Shown piece after piece: positions 54,216-62,203 of a DNA stretch of 64,000 nucleotides (within the stretch, counting starts at the first letter, position 1; every line of letters begins with the position of its first letter). The DNA lies in IMG/VR virus record IMGVR_UViG_2529292920_000018, positions 1 to 64,000 of that record; one strand, given 5' to 3'. The translations under genes and the position numbers were made by a program. The DNA comes from a virus. Its lineage: Duplodnaviria; Heunggongvirae; Uroviricota; Caudoviricetes. Below the pieces are notes generated by a model. The model saw only the letters and a program-made list of their open reading frames with translations. It was not told the origin of the DNA and did no database searches.

Positions 54216-55988
54216 ATGACCATCACCACAGACACCACTCTTTTACACGACCCGCGTCGTCAGGCGGCGCTGCTGTACTGGCAGGGATTTTCCGTGCCGC
54301 AGATTGCCGCCATGTTGCAGATGAAACGCCCGACGGTGCAGAGCTGGAAACAGCGCGACGGCTGGGACAGCGTTGCCCCCATCAGCCGTGTCGAAATGAG
54401 TCTGGAAGCGCGGCTGACCCAGCTCATCATCAAACCGCAGAAAACCGGCGGTGACTTCAAGGAAATTGACCTGCTCGGACGCCAGATTGAACGACTGGCA
54501 CGGGTCAACCGTTACAGTCAGACCGGCAACGAGGCAGACCTTAATCCGAACGTCGCTAACCGCAACAAAGGCGGGCGTCGCAAACCGAAAAAGAATTTTT
54601 TCAGTGACGAGGCCATCGAAAAGCTGGAGCAGATTTTCTTTGAGCAGTCTTTCGACTATCAGTTGCACTGGTATCGCGCAGGGCTTGAGCACCGCATCCG
54701 CGATATCCTGAAATCCCGCCAGATTGGCGCGACGTTTTATTTTTCCCGCGAGGCGCTGCTGCGCGCCCTGAAAACCGGTCATAACCAGATTTTTCTGTCG
54801 GCCAGTAAAACGCAGGCGTATGTGTTCCGCGAATACATCATCGCCTTTGCCCGGCTGGTTGACGTTGACCTGACCGGTGACCCGATTGTCCTGGGCAATA
54901 ACGGCGCAAAACTGATTTTTCTCGGCACCAACTCCAACACCGCGCAGAGCCATAACGGCGACCTGTACGTCGACGAGATTTTCTGGATCCCGAATTTTCA
55001 GGTACTGCGTAAGGTGGCATCAGGTATGGCCTCACAGAGTCACCTGCGCTCGACCTATTTCTCCACCCCGTCCACACTGGCGCACGACGCCTACCCGTTC
55101 TGGTCGGGTGAACTGTTTAACCGGGGACGCGCCAGCGCCGCCGAACGCGTGGAAATCGACGTCAGTCATAACGCCCTTGCCGGTGGGCTTCTCTGTGCGG
55201 ACGGCCAGTGGCGGCAGATTGTCACCATTGAGGACGCCCTGAAAGGCGGCTGCACGCTGTTCGACATTGAGCAGCTCAAACGTGAAAACAGCGCCGACGA
55301 TTTTAAAAACCTGTTCATGTGTGAATTTGTTGACGACAAGGCGTCGGTGTTCCCGTTCGAGGAGCTGCAACGCTGCATGGTCGACACGCTGGAAGAATGG
55401 GAAGACTATGCGCCGTTTGCCACGAATCCGTTCGGCTCCCGCCCGGTCTGGATTGGTTACGACCCGTCACACCGTGGCGACAGTGCCGGATGCGTGGTGC
55501 TGGCACCGCCGGTGGTGGCCGGTGGCAAATTCAGAATACTTGAGCGTCACCAGTGGAAAGGCATGGACTTTGCCACCCAGGCAGAATCCATCCGCAAACT
55601 CACCGAAAAATACAACGTCGAATACATCGGAATTGATGCCACCGGCCTCGGTGTCGGCGTGTTCCAGCTCGTTCGCTCGTTCTATCCCGCCGCGCGCGAT
55701 ATCCGCTACACGCCGGAAATGAAAACCGCAATGGTGCTCAAGGCAAAAGACGTTATTCGCCGTGGCTGTCTGGAATATGACGTCAGCGCCACCGACATCA
55801 CCAGCTCGTTCATGGCTATCCGCAAGACCATGACCAGCAGCGGACGCAGCGCCACCTATGAGGCCAGCCGCAGCGAGGAAGCCAGCCACGCCGACCTCGC
55901 CTGGGCGACCATGCACGCCCTGTTAAATGAGCCACTCACCGCCGGTATCAGCACTCCGCTGACATCCACCATTCTGGAGTTTTACTGA
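54216..55988 (+). CDS. P: Terminase large (ATPase) subunit gpP-like
   Basis: Start at MTITTDTTLL; divergent from O as in P2. Confidence 0.85.
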   Translation: MTITTDTTLLHDPRRQAALLYWQGFSVPQIAAMLQMKRPTVQSWKQRDGWDSVAPISRVEMSLEARLTQLIIKPQKTGGDFKEIDLLGRQIERLARVNRYSQTGNEADLNPNVANRNKGGRRKPKKNFFSDEAIEKLEQIFFEQSFDYQLHWYRAGLEHRIRDILKSRQIGATFYFSREALLRALKTGHNQIFLSASKTQAYVFREYIIAFARLVDVDLTGDPIVLGNNGAKLIFLGTNSNTAQSHNGDLYVDEIFWIPNFQVLRKVASGMASQSHLRSTYFSTPSTLAHDAYPFWSGELFNRGRASAAERVEIDVSHNALAGGLLCADGQWRQIVTIEDALKGGCTLFDIEQLKRENSADDFKNLFMCEFVDDKASVFPFEELQRCMVDTLEEWEDYAPFATNPFGSRPVWIGYDPSHRGDSAGCVVLAPPVVAGGKFRILERHQWKGMDFATQAESIRKLTEKYNVEYIGIDATGLGVGVFQLVRSFYPAARDIRYTPEMKTAMVLKAKDVIRRGCLEYDVSATDITSSFMAIRKTMTSSGRSATYEASRSEEASHADLAWATMHALLNEPLTAGISTPLTSTILEFY

Positions 55989-57022
55989 TGAGTAAGAAAA
56001 AAGGGAAAACACCGCAGCCAGCGGTGAAAACAATGACTGCCAGCGCCCCGAAAATGGAGGCATTCACCTTTGGTGAGCCGGTGCCGGTACTCGACCGCCG
56101 TGATATTCTGGATTACGTCGAGTGCATCAGTAACGGCAGATGGTATGAGCCACCGGTCAGCTTTACCGGTCTGGCAAAAAGCCTGCGTGCTGCCGTGCAT
56201 CACAGCTCACCGATTTACGTCAAACGTAATATTCTGGCCTCAACGTTTATCCCGCACCCGTGGCTTTCCCAGCAGGATTTCAGCCGCTTTGTGCTGGATT
56301 TTCTGGTGTTCGGTAATGCGTTTCTGGAAAAGCGCTACAGCACTACCGGTAAGGTCATCAGACTGGAAACCTCACCTGCAAAATATACCCGCCGTGGCGT
56401 GGAGGAGGATGTTTACTGGTGGGTGCCATCCTTCAACGAGCCGACACCTTTCGCGCCCGGCTCCGTGTTTCACCTGCTGGAGCCGGATATCAATCAGGAG
56501 CTGTACGGCCTGCCGGAATATCTCAGCGCCCTTAACTCTGCCTGGCTGAATGAGTCAGCCACACTGTTCCGCCGCAAGTATTACGAAAACGGCGCGCATG
56601 CCGGATATATCATGTACGTCACCGATGCCGTGCAGGATCGCAACGATATCGAAATGCTTCGCGAAAACATGGTGAAGTCGAAAGGCCGCAACAACTTTAA
56701 AAATCTGTTTCTCTATGCCCCACAGGGAAAAGCCGACGGCATTAAAATTATCCCGCTCAGTGAAGTGGCGACGAAGGACGATTTTTTTAATATCAAAAAA
56801 GCCAGTGCCGCAGACCTGCTGGACGCGCACCGCATCCCCTTTCAGTTGATGGGCGGCAAGCCGGAGAACGTCGGGTCGCTGGGTGATATTGAGAAAGTGG
56901 CAAAGGTCTTTGTCCGCAATGAGCTTATCCCGTTACAGGACAGGATCCGCGAGATAAACGGCTGGCTCGGTCAGGAGGTCATCCGCTTTAAAAACTACTC
57001 ACTGGACACTGACAACGGCTGA
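55988..57022 (+). CDS. Q: Portal protein gpQ-like
   Basis: 344 aa; downstream of P, next to cos. Confidence 0.85.
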   Translation: MSKKKGKTPQPAVKTMTASAPKMEAFTFGEPVPVLDRRDILDYVECISNGRWYEPPVSFTGLAKSLRAAVHHSSPIYVKRNILASTFIPHPWLSQQDFSRFVLDFLVFGNAFLEKRYSTTGKVIRLETSPAKYTRRGVEEDVYWWVPSFNEPTPFAPGSVFHLLEPDINQELYGLPEYLSALNSAWLNESATLFRRKYYENGAHAGYIMYVTDAVQDRNDIEMLRENMVKSKGRNNFKNLFLYAPQGKADGIKIIPLSEVATKDDFFNIKKASAADLLDAHRIPFQLMGGKPENVGSLGDIEKVAKVFVRNELIPLQDRIREINGWLGQEVIRFKNYSLDTDNG

Positions 57023-57049: not shown

Positions 57050-57191
57050 ATACCCCGTCATCACGCCCTCACACGCTCACCACCGCACAAAACAGCCCGC
57101 ATACACACCAACGCCCCGGCGGACAATCTAAACGCCATCACGACGCGCTCAGACGCTGAAAAAATAAAATCAGCACCACCGCCAGCGCGCA

Positions 57192-57210
57192 GTGCTTTCC
57201 CCGCCTCGCC
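57192..57210. other. P2-type cos site (19-nt cohesive-end sequence)
   Basis: gtgctttccccgcctcgcc is the reverse complement of GGCGAGGCGGGGAAAGCAC, the P2 cohesive end as I recall it. Confidence 0.6.
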
Positions 57211-57370
57211 CGCCCGCTTCATGGGGCGGTTTTAATGCAGTTGCATTACCATACAGAAGTACTGCCACGTCTGACAATTCATAGCTAGAATGTATAGCAT
57301 ATGTTGCATGCAAAATAATGCATATAAAGAATGCTTTTCACTCAATACTTCATCATACGATTTTGTTGGC

Positions 57371-58153
57371 TCATTTTAGAAGCCCTATTATAGCTGCAAT
57401 CATACTTCCTACGCCGCCGACTGCTGCGAAAAAAGTAGCCCAAAACATTTTCTTCTGAGTACTCAAATTCTCTCTGTACCGCACCTCATCTTTATTGAAT
57501 GTAGATATTGTGTTCAGTGCCTTTCCTGTTGGCCTAAATCCACTACTTGTTTCAACAAGATCTCCATTCTGAACAAGAGAATTCAGGCATAAACGAAGCT
57601 CTTTACGCATCCTGTTTTTATCGTCATGGTATACCCATAAACTACCAGCGACTTCGGTCATTATTGAAAACTCACTAAACACAGTTTGAGCATCCCATTC
57701 ACGATACATTCTTATAATCGTTGAGAGAACAAACATCACATCAGTTATTTCTTTTTTTTGCTGTCGATAAATATATTTTTCACGACTAAATTTTATATTT
57801 TCATAATTAGACCTTACTCTAAAGAACAACTCCCTTAAAAATGTTAAATCATTTAAAGAGTTAAATCGCAACTCATGCGCACGGTAGTAGTAAACACCAA
57901 AAAAAGAATCAGGCGTAACCTCAGAAATATCCAAGCATGAACTTATATGAAATCTACGCTCCTCATCATCCCATTTAAAAGCCTTTATCTTCCCATCAAC
58001 CAAACAGTCAAAGAGGTATTCTGTATCATTTTTATCTTTAATATATACAGAGTACATATCATACTTAATCGCGTTTTCATATAACAAACTAATACGGCCA
58101 TCATCTGGCGTTCTTTTCTTATCAAACTTCTTAAGTTGGTTTATAACTTTCAT
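57371..58153 (-). CDS. Hypothetical tail-anchored membrane protein (cargo gene B at tin/old hotspot)
   Basis: 260 aa; single C-terminal TM helix MFWATFFAAVGGVGSMIAAIIGLL; AT-rich codon usage; no recognised family. Confidence 0.5.
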   Translation of the reverse strand: MKVINQLKKFDKKRTPDDGRISLLYENAIKYDMYSVYIKDKNDTEYLFDCLVDGKIKAFKWDDEERRFHISSCLDISEVTPDSFFGVYYYRAHELRFNSLNDLTFLRELFFRVRSNYENIKFSREKYIYRQQKKEITDVMFVLSTIIRMYREWDAQTVFSEFSIMTEVAGSLWVYHDDKNRMRKELRLCLNSLVQNGDLVETSSGFRPTGKALNTISTFNKDEVRYRENLSTQKKMFWATFFAAVGGVGSMIAAIIGLLK

Positions 58154-58212
58154 AACATTCTCGCAGTGCTAATCTCATACGCAACAAATCTCGGCTCTGC
58201 CGCTCTAATAGT

Positions 58213-58253
58213 CAAAAAATGCCGACACCCAATTAAATATTCAGCGTCGGCAT
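58213..58253 (-). terminator. Possible terminator between the two cargo genes
   Basis: Stem atgccgac/gtcggcat with long loop, followed on the minus strand by TTTTTT. Confidence 0.35.
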
Positions 58254-58262
58254 TGTAAGATA

Positions 58263-58994
58263 TCAATTATCTATGATTGATATCACCTTACCAGTTTTTA
58301 TATCAACACGCGCAGCAATCGTCTGTTTCACCACTCCGCCATAAGCATTTTTTCCGCGAAACGTGGTTTTCACAATGGCATGAGGGTCTTTATTCAAAAC
58401 CAGATGATATACCGTTGACACATGTTTATAAGATGAATCATCGTTCATATTATCTTTAATTAGTTTTTCCAATGGACGATAAGAACCATCCCAACCACTA
58501 AAATTACTCTGAAATGTATCAAGATTGATTTTATTGTTTAGTGAATTCGGGTCATTTTCATAATCATTAAAGCACCACCCAAGAACATCACCGAGTTTCA
58601 ACTCATCATCTTTGGTAAATGTATATTCACTCATGCAGGCATAAAACGCATCTGACGCGGTGGCTGGAACTTCCTTAAAATCAATGTAACTATTCACAAT
58701 ATCGTGTCGTGTTTTCTTTGACTCGTTCCGATATTCCTTGAGTGTTTTTTTACCATATTTGAATGTTTTTTGGACTTTATGTTCTGCAACGGTTGATGTT
58801 TCAGTTTTATCAACTGGCTGGCTTTTTTCTGTTGGATAGAGTATTGAACCAATTATGCTCAATACAAAACCTCCTCCGAGATAAACCGCACTTGCACGTT
58901 TGCGGTTTGGCATTCGCACCAGTGATGGCTTGATTAACCCGATGAAGAAAGCAACGAAAAAAGCGAGTGATAGAAAAGCGATTATAGTATCCAT
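58263..58994 (-). CDS. Hypothetical membrane protein with two N-terminal TM helices (cargo gene A at tin/old hotspot)
   Basis: Start at MDTIIAFLSL with AAGGA 7 nt upstream; about 170-aa C-terminal soluble domain; AT-rich; no recognised family. Confidence 0.5.
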   Translation of the reverse strand: MDTIIAFLSLAFFVAFFIGLIKPSLVRMPNRKRASAVYLGGGFVLSIIGSILYPTEKSQPVDKTETSTVAEHKVQKTFKYGKKTLKEYRNESKKTRHDIVNSYIDFKEVPATASDAFYACMSEYTFTKDDELKLGDVLGWCFNDYENDPNSLNNKINLDTFQSNFSGWDGSYRPLEKLIKDNMNDDSSYKHVSTVYHLVLNKDPHAIVKTTFRGKNAYGGVVKQTIAARVDIKTGKVISIIDN

Positions 58995-59217
58995 AGCTAT
59001 CCTTTTTGCATCATCCACATAAAAAATCGACCTCATGTTAGCAACAGGATGCTTACTTTTGAATATTTGTAAGTTGTTAGCTCTCCAACCTAACTCCTTT
59101 CAACCGTCAAAAACCGGCACCAACGCAGTAAAAATATGTCTGTCAACTAACGCCTCGCTACGCTCGTTGTTCAACCCCGCCAGCCCTGAAAACAAGTTTC
59201 ACGACTGGCGGCGTTCT

Positions 59218-59436
59218 CTATCGTCTTCGTGGTGGTGGCGCAACTCTGGACTGACCGATATAGTTAAGCCGCCCGTAATTATCCCGAACTATTTCGGCAC
59301 ACCCGACCAGCTCATCGGGCGTCAGATTTTCGTTGACCATAATCCGCTGTAAACGCTGAACAATAGCCATCAGCTTGATATTTTTAGTTTTATGGTGCGG
59401 TATCTCGCCTGGTATTCTGTGCATTATCCAAGCCAC
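59218..59436 (-). CDS. Hypothetical small protein
   Basis: 72-aa ORF between the cargo island and the ASCH-like gene. Confidence 0.3.
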   Translation of the reverse strand: MAWIMHRIPGEIPHHKTKNIKLMAIVQRLQRIMVNENLTPDELVGCAEIVRDNYGRLNYIGQSRVAPPPRRR

Positions 59437-59879
59437 CCGTTTTGCTTTGCACGCTCCACCTGTTCATCTGAATAGTTCCATATCCCATCCGCAGCAACCA
59501 CTGCCCCGCCAGACAGCCCCGTCTCTGGTTCATACATAACAGCAAGGCCGAGCTGATGCATAATTTCATGATTAATTCTGAATACCAGACCACGTTCACT
59601 AAGTTCTTTCCAGTTCACAATCTTATATGCGCCCGTATTAAGCAGCTCAATACTTAGCAAGACATAATCTTCCAGCCAGTCTGACAGGTCAGTAACATCT
59701 GTTATCCGGGCTTCAACCTTTCGCCCCGTAAACACACCCTGCACCCATTCATGCAAAATCAACGTGTCCCCGCGCTCATAATTACGGTCATTTTTCCGAA
59801 ACTCTGCGCGTTTTTTTCCTTCCAGTACAAGGTCGAAATATTTTGCGTGCAGCTTTACCTCGTGAATTTTTGCCATCAT
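59424..59879 (-). CDS. ASCH-domain (DUF3850-like) protein
   Basis: N-terminal KIHEVKLHAKYFDLVLEGKKRAEFRKNDR pattern; start overlaps the A stop. Confidence 0.5.
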   Translation of the reverse strand: MMAKIHEVKLHAKYFDLVLEGKKRAEFRKNDRNYERGDTLILHEWVQGVFTGRKVEARITDVTDLSDWLEDYVLLSIELLNTGAYKIVNWKELSERGLVFRINHEIMHQLGLAVMYEPETGLSGGAVVAADGIWNYSDEQVERAKQNGWLG

Positions 59880-62203
59880 GTCCACTCCATTACTGTTGAG
59901 AATCCCGGCCACTCATCAGCGACCGGATACGTGAATTTTTTCCCGTCATAATTTACGGTTGCCCCACGCGCCAGCGCCTCAAGCTCCCATCGCTGCGGCC
60001 TGATACCGTTCTGAGCAAGGTCAACGCGGATACGGGTAATTTGCATTCGTTCCGACCGGGTCAGTCTGGCCGATGGTGCCATTTCATGCGGTTTTAACGG
60101 GCTTCCGTTTCTTTGCTGGCGATTTGGTGTTCTCAGGCCATGTTTTAATGCACCTCTGAGCGCCCTCACGACCTCCGGGTCATTCCATTCGATGACACCG
60201 TCATCAACCAGATTAAGCACTGCTGCGGCGTGCTCAGAAGGTGTGGGAGCTGGTAACGAAGTATCACCACCGGTGAGCTTTCCACAGTTATTGACAGGAC
60301 TCCGAGGCGCGGCGATGCCGCTTTTTAAAGTCAAAGGCTCAACGACCGGAACTTTCGGCACAATGCGCCAGTCCGTCGTTCTGGTGATATGAATATGACG
60401 CGCGCCGAGATGCGGCGCGTAAATGCCGACCACTCTCTCGACTTCTTCCTCGTACTCGTTAACGTCATCCGACGGGCTACGGGCAACCCTGACAGTCTGA
60501 CAATCGCGCGGGACATTTGCCCCACCCTGCGCGCTGATATACAACGCAAAATCACCACTGTCTGCGGCAGCGCGAGCAGCCTCGACGCGTTCGTCAAACT
60601 CATCAGCAATACTGACGCCGCGAGGCAATTTGCGTAGTTCACGGTAAGCCCCCATTGTCGGCAGTCCAACCGTTTTAAATTGCGGGATGCGCCACGTTGA
60701 CGCCCATGCGGTAACAGCCGCGGCAGTATCTTTAAGCGGCTTACCGGTATCGTTATCGAGCTGACCATCCAGTGCATAGCCGTCGATATTTTTTGAAATG
60801 TATTTCGCGATATATCCCGCAGCACCGCCCCGGTTAAGGTGCTTTGCCTGAAAACGGTTTCGCGCTGCTCCTCTTTCGTCGCCATCCTCTTTGAGCGCAT
60901 AGCGACGCATGATTTCAATAATCTGGTTACGCTGGCGTGGATTACAAAAAAGCATCATATGCCAGTGCGGCGTTCCGTCGTGGTGTGGCTCAACGACACG
61001 CAAACCGTAGGCCTGTAAATCATTATCCTTGAATGCCGTGCGCATCAGGCTCCAGATACGGCAGAGATAACGCTGCGCATCCTTTGGATTAAATGCCTCA
61101 TGGTTCCAGCCGTGATTAAGCTGGACGGTTTTACTTTCGCCTTTTCCGACCTGACGTGTCGGGTGATACTTTGACGGCGCGGTCAGCGTGATAAACATCC
61201 CCACATCACCCTCTGCGGCGGCGTAACGCTCAATTCCGGCGATGGTGTTCATCAGCTCCATCCGGCGAATTTCTGGATTAGAAATACTGCCCATCACCTT
61301 ACTGATAAGGTCGATGCGTTCGCCGGTTTCCCTGTTTTCAAGGTCACACGATTTAAGAAATTCCAGATTTGCCTGGCGGCGCGCACGCACATCACGAATA
61401 GCATGTTTACTGGCATAAGGTGAACGGTCTTTATTGACCTCCCCGACAGCAATCAGTAACGCCTCATGCCAACGCATACGCTGGCCTTTAAGCTGATGAG
61501 TCCACCACTCATCGTTAAACAGACGGGCAATGGCAGAATATGCCTGCCTCGTGGTCATCTGCCCTTTACGGTATTTTTTCCAGTAGAGAGGGGAAATATT
61601 GAAAGCACGTGCAGCGCCAGCAACATGACCATACAGGTGAGCCTGCGCCTCATCCGTAAACAGCGATTCTTTTTCGCCATGCGCATCCACCCAGGCATCG
61701 CAGAGTTCCTCATACATCATGAAAAGCTGCGATGAGATACGGGCGGCAAACTTTTTCAGCTCCTTGTCATTCATTCCCGGCAGGCGTGCATAGTGGTCAC
61801 GCTCTGCCAAAAACAGCAACGACGCGTCGGTGTTCATTTCATGGCGCTGATTCACACGCTCAATACGCGGCCATAAACGACGCTGAAAAGTGGATGTGAG
61901 GAAATAAAACCCGTGCACCGGGCTTTTATTGCGCCGGATGTAGTCATAGCGTGAAGTAAACAGCGAGCGCAAAAAATAAGGCAGGCGATTTATCGTGGAT
62001 AAAACACCTTGCACCTGACGCATCTCGTCACGTGTAAGGGGTCTTTCGCGCCCGACGGCCTCGCGTGGCGCGTTCCATGCATAAGCACCGGTAAACGCCT
62101 TACCGGTGCCTGCAGCAAATGCTGAAGGAGGGACAAAACGCCCGGAGGCTTTAACGGCCATATGAGCCAAAAGCCTCTGAACAACGCCTGCTGAGTTGCT
62201 CAA
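59876..62203 (-). CDS. A: Replication initiation endonuclease gpA-like
   Basis: 775-aa ORF containing GYIAKYISKN active-site-like motif; true start may be the internal Met at 62161. Confidence 0.85.
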   Translation of the reverse strand: MSNSAGVVQRLLAHMAVKASGRFVPPSAFAAGTGKAFTGAYAWNAPREAVGRERPLTRDEMRQVQGVLSTINRLPYFLRSLFTSRYDYIRRNKSPVHGFYFLTSTFQRRLWPRIERVNQRHEMNTDASLLFLAERDHYARLPGMNDKELKKFAARISSQLFMMYEELCDAWVDAHGEKESLFTDEAQAHLYGHVAGAARAFNISPLYWKKYRKGQMTTRQAYSAIARLFNDEWWTHQLKGQRMRWHEALLIAVGEVNKDRSPYASKHAIRDVRARRQANLEFLKSCDLENRETGERIDLISKVMGSISNPEIRRMELMNTIAGIERYAAAEGDVGMFITLTAPSKYHPTRQVGKGESKTVQLNHGWNHEAFNPKDAQRYLCRIWSLMRTAFKDNDLQAYGLRVVEPHHDGTPHWHMMLFCNPRQRNQIIEIMRRYALKEDGDERGAARNRFQAKHLNRGGAAGYIAKYISKNIDGYALDGQLDNDTGKPLKDTAAAVTAWASTWRIPQFKTVGLPTMGAYRELRKLPRGVSIADEFDERVEAARAAADSGDFALYISAQGGANVPRDCQTVRVARSPSDDVNEYEEEVERVVGIYAPHLGARHIHITRTTDWRIVPKVPVVEPLTLKSGIAAPRSPVNNCGKLTGGDTSLPAPTPSEHAAAVLNLVDDGVIEWNDPEVVRALRGALKHGLRTPNRQQRNGSPLKPHEMAPSARLTRSERMQITRIRVDLAQNGIRPQRWELEALARGATVNYDGKKFTYPVADEWPGFSTVMEWT

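Follow-up and report, generated by a model that had tools for sequence, protein, structure and literature searches.

Toward the right-hand end of the window analyzed here, which comprises the first 64,000 nucleotides (nt) of the IMG/VR virus record IMGVR_UViG_2529292920_000018 (Caudoviricetes), the P2-type cohesive end (cos) is separated from the genes for an ASCH protein and the replication protein gpA by an AT-rich island containing two genes on the minus strand. This locus raises a question: Do the two genes constitute a single system of membrane proteins, or are they separate passengers lying side by side, and what might each of them do? The island occupies the slot in which the P2 record shows tin and old. 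This gpA-cos hotspot of P2-like phages is well established as a source of anti-phage genes, which makes unannotated cargo residing there a good place for finding new ones. The reading that we favor, and consider probable as an overall explanation that includes the roles proposed below, is that the island is formed by two independently exchangeable single-gene cassettes of a P2-like prophage: one encoding a 243-amino acid (aa) homologue of Orf97 of coliphage 186, the other a 260-aa tail-anchored protein of a large but uncharacterized family (table 1).

The anatomy of the island, as outlined in a preliminary description of the same DNA, proved to be correct. The GC content is 0.32-0.39 across 57250-58900 versus 0.50-0.60 in both flanks, and the cos site on one side carries GGCGAGGCGGGGAAAGCAC, which reproduces exactly the cosR annotated in P2 (AF063097 33575-33593), occurs once in the window and turned up in none of the shuffles. 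Both genes appear in the list of open reading frames (ORFs) and are under purifying selection, with ratios of nonsynonymous to synonymous substitution rates (dN/dS) in diverged pairs of 0.14 for the 260-aa and 0.07-0.13 for the 243-aa gene, as expected of real genes. Hydropathy and AlphaFold2 agree on two N-terminal transmembrane (TM) helices in the 243-aa protein and a single C-terminal one in the 260-aa protein, while the possible terminator between the genes is a strong hairpin (-21.6 kcal/mol, z = -4.5, with 0 of 200 shuffles as stable) followed by U6, which a consensus scan had missed only because of its limit on loop size. The functional guess of the same description, a defense or superinfection-exclusion pair, was reasonable, but its statement that the genes match no recognizable family was incorrect: The 243-aa protein belongs to phrog_3403 and the 260-aa protein to phrog_7611, and both are catalogued, as separate single-gene entries without Pfam label, in Table S5B of Rousset et al. 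(2022; PMC9122126), no. 12 ("2 TM") being found in 210 and no. 68 ("1 TM") in 62 of 18,150 P2-like loci.

Judging from its sequence, the 243-aa protein is almost certainly a member of the Orf97 family. A tblastn search of deposited phages aligned it with 186 Orf97 at 75.3% identity over residues 1-243 (E = 4e-115), the match to phrog_3403 covers profile positions 1-243 of 243 (E = 3.9e-146), and the homologous gene of phages 9W and P22H4 is labelled "Orf97." The ORF as called spans 58263-59036 (-), and the most likely start codon is the ATG at 58994, which gives 243 aa, has an AAAGGA Shine-Dalgarno sequence 7 nt upstream and corresponds to the MDT or MEL position at which essentially all homologues begin. 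The family includes at least 171 clusters at 90% identity, from Klebsiella, Enterobacter, Serratia, Yersinia, Photorhabdus, Pectobacterium, and Erwinia, with remoter relatives detected by tblastn in Vibrio phage VHML and Aeromonas phages. Among complete E. coli genomes orf97 is present in 84 of 5,426, and the gpA-cos slot houses it also in prophages of Serratia, Klebsiella, and Enterobacter. The GenBank note on 186 Orf97 (U32222, 29604-30335) states that "expression from plasmid blocks 186 infection." In 186 the gene order is p95, tum, the partial terminator t95a, orf97, the terminator t95b, and cos, within an SOS operon controlled by LexA. We found no further description of the orf97 phenotype in the open literature; the source paper for the gene is reportedly that of Brumby et al. 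of 1996, which PMC5322425 cites. The 243-aa gene is therefore of an already known kind, because the 186 Orf97 family has a published infection-block phenotype, and the 260-aa gene, likewise catalogued, is the part of the island that merits cloning.

The 260-aa protein matches phrog_7611 over 260 of 260 positions (E = 5.9e-164), and the string printed for no. 68 in Table S5B differs from it by a single residue. A word-index search returned 30 clusters, all from Enterobacterales, and a full HMMER scan with the family profile retrieved 637 representatives at 50% clustering (233 of them at E <= 1e-10), nearly all of 250-300 aa and matching from end to end; a profile scan of genome contigs with the family alignment found no relatives. 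The cassette with this gene occurs in 6 of the 5,426 complete E. coli genomes, and these represent one lineage with DNA identity of 98-99.7%.

That the two cassettes are independent of each other is very probable on several grounds. In terms of DNA homology, the similarity to other P2-like phages on the cos side stops at 57246-57259, orf97-sharing phages part from the window sequence right at the orf97 stop codon (58262-58272), with the terminator sitting on the 260-aa cassette side of this breakpoint, and the sequence conserved P2-wide picks up again at 59145. Moreover, each gene is found without the other. The 260-aa gene is absent from 78 of the 84 orf97-bearing E. coli genomes, and what follows orf97 elsewhere is a member of a 2-TM family (217-232 aa), the gene for a 198-aa protein together with an FRG/PDC-S15 gene, the gene for a 429-aa protein, or a DUF2971/PDC-S31 gene. 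The first of these families stands after orf97 in many E. coli P2-like prophages (fetched loci L001 266-964, L002 143-841, L047 2221-2877, and L049 1014-1667), with 1-2 predicted N-terminal TM helices, mutual identity of 24-31%, and no Pfam or PADLOC match; in L049, the gene for an IS5 transposase lies between the two. A shared architecture for the variable genes following orf97 was considered and rejected, some belonging to the 2-TM family while others are soluble and unrelated. The 260-aa gene, in turn, occurs without orf97 in about 15 loci, either alone, as in L029, L031, and L032 where gpA and the portal gene have no other gene between them, or beside recognized systems: a type VI retron directly upstream in L020 (6519-7767; HTH_VI E = 2.5e-31, RT_VI E = 2.4e-106), with the same two upstream ORFs by sequence in L024, L027, and L035 (the scoring being that of L020 only), and an AbiL-like ATPase + RloB pair directly downstream in L017 (2655-4534). 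Kinship of the two protein families was also examined and rejected (hhalign probability <1%).

The preliminary description had likened the genes to tin and old as independent single-gene functions. The independence fits the evidence of separate occurrence, breakpoints, and separate curation; the same description's notion of one two-gene system is not supported, and the analogy with P2 is imperfect. The likeness lies in the hotspot itself, which extends from gpA/orf91 to cos, and in the non-essential, AT-rich nature of the cargo. However, old-tin lies on the strand opposite to A and is transcribed as one mRNA starting near cos, whereas the island of the window is co-directional with A, as is the tum-orf97 operon of 186, and no membrane feature is annotated for Tin or Old in the P2 record. 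Kinship with these proteins was rejected, too, the hhalign probability for Tin being 0.2% with the 260-aa family and 0.05% with the 243-aa family, and that for Old 0.25% with the 260-aa family, the only one compared with it.

What, then, could be the function of the Orf97 homologue? Its AlphaFold2 model, built from 49 sequences, has a mean predicted local distance difference test (pLDDT) score of 83, with values >90 for most of residues 80-243. Two helices at residues 2-21 and 31-52 agree with the TM segments deduced from hydropathy and are joined by a strongly basic loop (PNRKR), in and around which P23, V26, M28, and R31 are invariant; a disordered linker at 57-74 then leads to the soluble domain, which consists of a helical subdomain (~85-163) followed by a helix that packs against an antiparallel sheet of four strands (173-242). 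According to the positive-inside rule, the basic loop would be cytoplasmic and the topology N-out, loop-in, C-out, thereby placing the C-terminal domain in the periplasm, where the pair of C120 and C141, both invariant in 49/49 family sequences, would fit a disulfide. The best fold matches of the soluble domain are HdeA and HdeB, which are periplasmic chaperones of acid stress, the beta-sheet subdomain being left without a match. We have not classed the protein in the HdeA family: There is no similarity in sequence or Pfam to HdeA or HdeB (no Pfam match in the 49 family members, and nothing at E <= 1 in a profile search of PDB sequences), and Orf97 differs from these chaperones also in being tethered by two TM helices and in having an extra beta-sheet subdomain.

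In this light, the 243-aa protein would be an inner-membrane protein most likely displaying a disulfide-stabilized domain in the periplasm, composed of a helical part resembling HdeA and a small beta-sheet part, and by homology with 186 Orf97 it would most likely block infection by related phages. T4 Imm, P22 SieA, and HK97 gp15 are small phage proteins of the inner membrane that arrest an infecting phage either before its DNA enters or at that step. The Orf97-like protein can be likened to them on account of its predicted location and the infection block of its homologue, not of its sequence, and to our knowledge none of the three has a comparable periplasmic domain of ~170 aa combining HdeA-like and beta-sheet parts. 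Like them, it may act at the envelope, most plausibly by hindering DNA entry, and the most economical reading of the model and the 186 phenotype together would be superinfection exclusion at this level. On balance we expect the cassette to exclude phages, whereas the more specific proposal that it does so at DNA entry is put forward tentatively.

The route by which this gene reached the island can be partly reconstructed. Besides its length of 243 aa, its 75% end-to-end identity, and its gpA-cos position in a peduovirus, it has in common with 186 orf97 the upstream Shine-Dalgarno sequence and a t95a remnant, the DNA homology extending from about 60 nt upstream of the ATG to the stop codon. The remnant, a degraded copy of t95a at 58995-59050 (-) recognizable as CATCCTG...CATGAGG followed by a T-run, is the mark of where the cassette was cut from a tum-orf97 operon. 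Differences are equally clear: The host phage here is of P2 type, not 186 type; no gene separates orf97 from cos in 186, whereas a further cassette comes in between in the window; and 186 has the LexA-repressed operon p95-tum-orf97, whereas upstream of orf97 in the window we found neither the p95 promoter nor tum or any other gene with a DinI domain. Nor is there a LexA box between the gene for a 68-aa protein and the orf97 start, matches across the window being at chance level and the nearest sites with one mismatch (59460-59516) falling inside the ASCH gene. The regulation must therefore differ from that of 186, and orf97 therefore moved into the P2-type phage without its SOS control. Belonging to such an operon characterizes the 186 arrangement, not the protein family. 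The leader is 96% conserved among P2-like carriers, too uniform to reveal a promoter, and a scan for sigma-70 promoters gave 10 candidates versus 8.0 +/- 2.8 expected, which is not above chance; hence, we claim no promoter.

The border of the hotspot toward gpA is formed by a hairpin element of about 72 nt, which in the window is situated upstream of orf97 and in 186 and 186-like phages downstream of it, with copies at L047 2879-2950 and 3851-3922, L051 (phage 186) 4241-4309, and L039 6884-6954; in the E. coli prophage of L047 it flanks orf97 on both sides as a direct repeat of 74% identity. The element is a probable cassette linker or terminator, and may be a terminator that doubles as recombination linker for cassette exchange. 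In evolutionary terms, orf97 has been transferred between phages of the 186 and P2 types in the form of a cassette that this conserved element delimits.

For the 260-aa protein, the AlphaFold2 model (pLDDT 86) begins with a short N-terminal helix, continues with a beta domain whose strands lie at residues 32-39, 45-52, 55-62, 67-75, 84-90, and 93-97, and then with a long helix (105-131) between this domain and a winged helix, before ending with another long helix (210-259), the end of which is the TM anchor (Kyte-Doolittle 19-mer mean of 2.2). The winged helix fold is supported by MarR-like structural matches, which are generic and have no counterpart in a Pfam MarR match, whereas the beta domain has no structural match among the top matches listed; Foldseek searches of the model against BFVD gave 0 matches at E <= 0.001, and profile searches of PDB sequences gave nothing at E <= 1. 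Conservation in the family, which aligns almost gap-free over its full length, peaks in the winged helix and the juxtamembrane helix (L143, H176, L190, Y206, a TGKA motif that includes A212, and T215) and is lowest in the beta domain and long helix, the former having a column entropy (2.85 bits) that ranks among the highest in the deep family, at a gap fraction of only 0.02. In 79/79 sampled members, it is at the C-terminal end that the most hydrophobic 19-mer is found. This universal hydrophobic helix and the pattern of conservation therefore indicate a cytoplasmic, tail-anchored protein with a more variable N-terminal half. None of the 79 members has a meaningful Pfam match or a consistent PADLOC match (E < 0.01), and the combination of variable beta domain, winged helix, and tail anchor is absent from PADLOC-DB v2, the sets tested by Rousset et al. 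(2022), and PDB.

The following role could be envisaged for the 260-aa protein. Held at the inner membrane by its C-terminal anchor, with the variable beta domain, long helix, and conserved winged helix exposed to the cytoplasm, it would use the N-terminal domain and winged helix to sense nucleic acid or protein at the membrane, the beta domain being a possible sensor, while the anchor would either localize the protein or serve as effector. As to context, where contigs were long enough to be informative its remote relatives stand alone in accessory slots of lambdoid-type prophages, with HicAB and antirepressor genes on one side and YafO, Macro, and Rrf2 genes on the other, and one sits in a ParA/HigB/ParE region. 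In some of them (L044 6001-7181; L052 285-2021) a small unannotated gene of 121 or 197 aa lies 3-6 bp downstream, a hint that other lineages have operon partners missing from the window. Among the TM proteins encoded in P2 and P4 hotspots as parts of defense systems (RT-nitrilase + 1TM, hydrolase + 3TM, AC1 2TM + 1TM + TIR, gop-beta-cII), there are small membrane proteins likewise proposed as effectors, from which the 260-aa protein differs in standing alone, without an enzymatic partner. As its likeliest role, though one held tentatively, we consider that of a second and independent determinant against phages or mobile elements; the bolder idea that it defines a new and widespread single-gene family against phages or plasmids, acting as tail-anchored membrane detector of incoming nucleic acid or phage protein, appears doubtful.

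How strong is the prior for an anti-phage role at this location? The gpA-cos hotspot is experimentally rich in defense genes (Rousset et al. 2022; PMC9122126), and a 2026 preprint reports that protection against phages was conferred by 6/8 unknown P4 loci picked at random and that 19% of P2-like elements have only unknown genes at the gpA-cos locus. On the other hand, a number of observations weigh against the roles that we propose. The hotspot also carries non-defense cargo such as partition systems and the cdt toxin (PMC9122126), and no more than 15-32% of the unknown proteins at P2 hotspots are scored as antiviral by machine learning in the same preprint. The sole phenotype, known from a one-line GenBank note, was obtained by plasmid expression of a homologue that is 75% identical. 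No promoter was identified for either gene by the sigma-70 scan, so that their expression in the lysogen is putative. As for the 260-aa protein, it has no relative detectable by tblastn in 50,697 deposited phage genomes and no match in PADLOC or the sets tested by Rousset et al. (2022). The exclusion role suggested by the preliminary description is thus backed for the 243-aa gene, via the note on 186 Orf97, and not for its neighbor. In the comparison with known systems, neither protein has a match in Pfam or NCBIfam, PADLOC gave none below E = 0.01 for either of them or for any of the 49 members of the 243-aa family, neither matches a validated or tested system in Tables S2A/B of Rousset et al. 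(2022) or PADLOC-DB v2.0, their N-terminal strings being absent from those tables and present only in Table S5B, and neither no. 12 nor no. 68 is among the systems cloned there (PMC9122126).

Three other explanations have to be weighed. One or both genes could be cargo of lysogenic conversion that contributes to host fitness in ways unrelated to phages, for instance as a tethered HdeA-like chaperone or a membrane-sequestered winged-helix regulator. The fold matches of the 243-aa soluble domain to acid-stress chaperones and the MarR-like winged helix of the 260-aa protein speak for this explanation, and the presence in the hotspot of partition systems and cytolethal distending toxin, together with that of extraintestinal pathogens such as IHE3034 and APEC O78 among the carriers, is in keeping with it. 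Yet the homologue in 186 blocks infection, neighbors in the same slot are mostly recognized or candidate defense systems, a Pfam HdeA match is found in 0/49 family members and the winged-helix matches are generic, all of which renders this explanation improbable.

The second explanation returns to the initial question and holds that the two genes constitute one two-component system of exclusion or abortive infection, in which a periplasm-facing Orf97-like protein would work with a cytoplasm-facing, anchored winged-helix protein. Both products are indeed inner-membrane proteins by hydropathy and AlphaFold2, and the pair is adjacent, co-oriented, in the same order, and separated by a gap of 113-159 bp in about 25 fetched loci. 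Some of these are 186-like prophages of Klebsiella and Enterobacter that have diverged (260-aa protein 55-62% and 243-aa protein 67-78% identical) and show the order tum, orf97, 260-aa gene, cos. Moreover, 6/6 E. coli genomes with the 260-aa gene also carry orf97. These six cases, however, amount to the single lineage mentioned above, and orf97 belongs to the SOS operon of 186-like phages and is perhaps near-universal there; if so, its co-occurrence with the 260-aa gene would be expected by chance and carries little weight. The occurrence of either gene without the other in many phages, the strong terminator between them, the cassette breakpoint at the orf97 stop codon, the 186 note crediting the block to orf97 alone, and the curation of separate systems by Rousset et al. 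(2022) all speak against a joint system, which we regard as quite unlikely. The last explanation is that the 260-aa gene does not defend the host but works for its own phage, for example in packaging near cos, in anchoring DNA, in timing lysis, or in controlling the lytic switch. This accords with its putative DNA-binding winged helix, its place as last gene before cos in nearly all peduovirus loci examined (L017, where the AbiL-like pair comes after, is the exception), and its co-residence with complete defense systems that fill the variable slot proper, but is very unlikely for a gene that is AT-rich, bounded by sharp breakpoints, so rare (6/5,426 E. coli genomes, 62/18,150 P2-like loci) as to be dispensable for peduoviruses, and whose remote relatives occupy accessory slots in unrelated prophages and in plasmid-like elements and not the vicinity of cos.

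Returning to the reading of two separate cassettes, its value lies in tying the catalogued entry no. 12, with its 210 loci, to the 1996 observation on phage 186 orf97, thus providing an exclusion phenotype to test along with a structural hypothesis, that of a periplasmic, disulfide-bonded, HdeA-like domain. Its neighbor becomes part of a large uncharacterized family of tail-anchored winged-helix proteins on mobile elements and a concrete candidate for cloning. Neither gene alters current concepts unless experiments uncover a new mechanism.

Table 1. Features of the gpA-cos island and its flanks (positions in the window)
Feature	Position	Strand	Basis
Portal gene Q, cos-side flank	55988-57022	+	
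P2-type cohesive end (cos), one edge of the hotspot	57192-57210	-	GGCGAGGCGGGGAAAGCAC, zero-mismatch 19-nt match
Cos-proximal cassette: 260-aa gene with its upstream terminator/promoter region	57260-58262	-	homology breakpoints
260-aa tail-anchored protein (phrog_7611; Rousset Table S5B no. 68)	57371-58153	-	PHROG match
C-terminal TM tail anchor, residues 241-259 of 260-aa protein	57377-57433	-	hydropathy
Winged helix-turn-helix domain, residues ~136-209 of 260-aa protein	57527-57748	-	model (139-208)
Six-stranded N-terminal beta domain, residues ~31-100 of 260-aa protein	57854-58063	-	AlphaFold2
Intrinsic terminator hairpin between the two genes	58213-58253	-	RNA fold
243-aa Orf97 homologue (phrog_3403; Rousset Table S5B no. 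12)	58263-58994	-	tblastn, PHROG
Predicted periplasmic domain, residues ~75-243 of Orf97 homologue	58266-58772	-	model
Two N-terminal TM helices (residues 3-21, 34-52) and basic loop KPSLVRMPNRKRAS	58839-58988	-	hydropathy, AlphaFold2
orf97 cassette leader: Shine-Dalgarno, degraded 186 t95a remnant, invariant TTGACA	58995-59144	-	homology to 186
Hairpin element, ~72 nt, gpA-side edge of the hotspot	59145-59215	-	-37.1 kcal/mol, z = -4.7
DUF3850/ASCH gene, gpA-side flank	59424-59912	-	
Replication gene A	59876-62203	-	

The flanks of the hotspot deserve some additional remarks. The ASCH gene of the window combines DUF3850/ASCH (E = 1.2e-17) with DUF7415 (E = 7.3e-14); its P2 counterpart is the shorter orf91, and its PHROG relatives carry the label "RNA-binding protein." The 3' end of this gene abuts the start of a 68-aa ORF (59218-59424, -), which lies between it and the hotspot and ends right before the hairpin element; this ORF is hypothetical in RefSeq (WP_000554770 in IHE3034) and is common to P2-like phages irrespective of their cargo. 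On the opposite side, a 53-aa ORF runs across the cos site (57061-57222, -), with counterparts that are also labelled hypothetical (L050 1269-1454, phage 9W 6-152), and is probably an annotation artifact over the GC-rich cos region.

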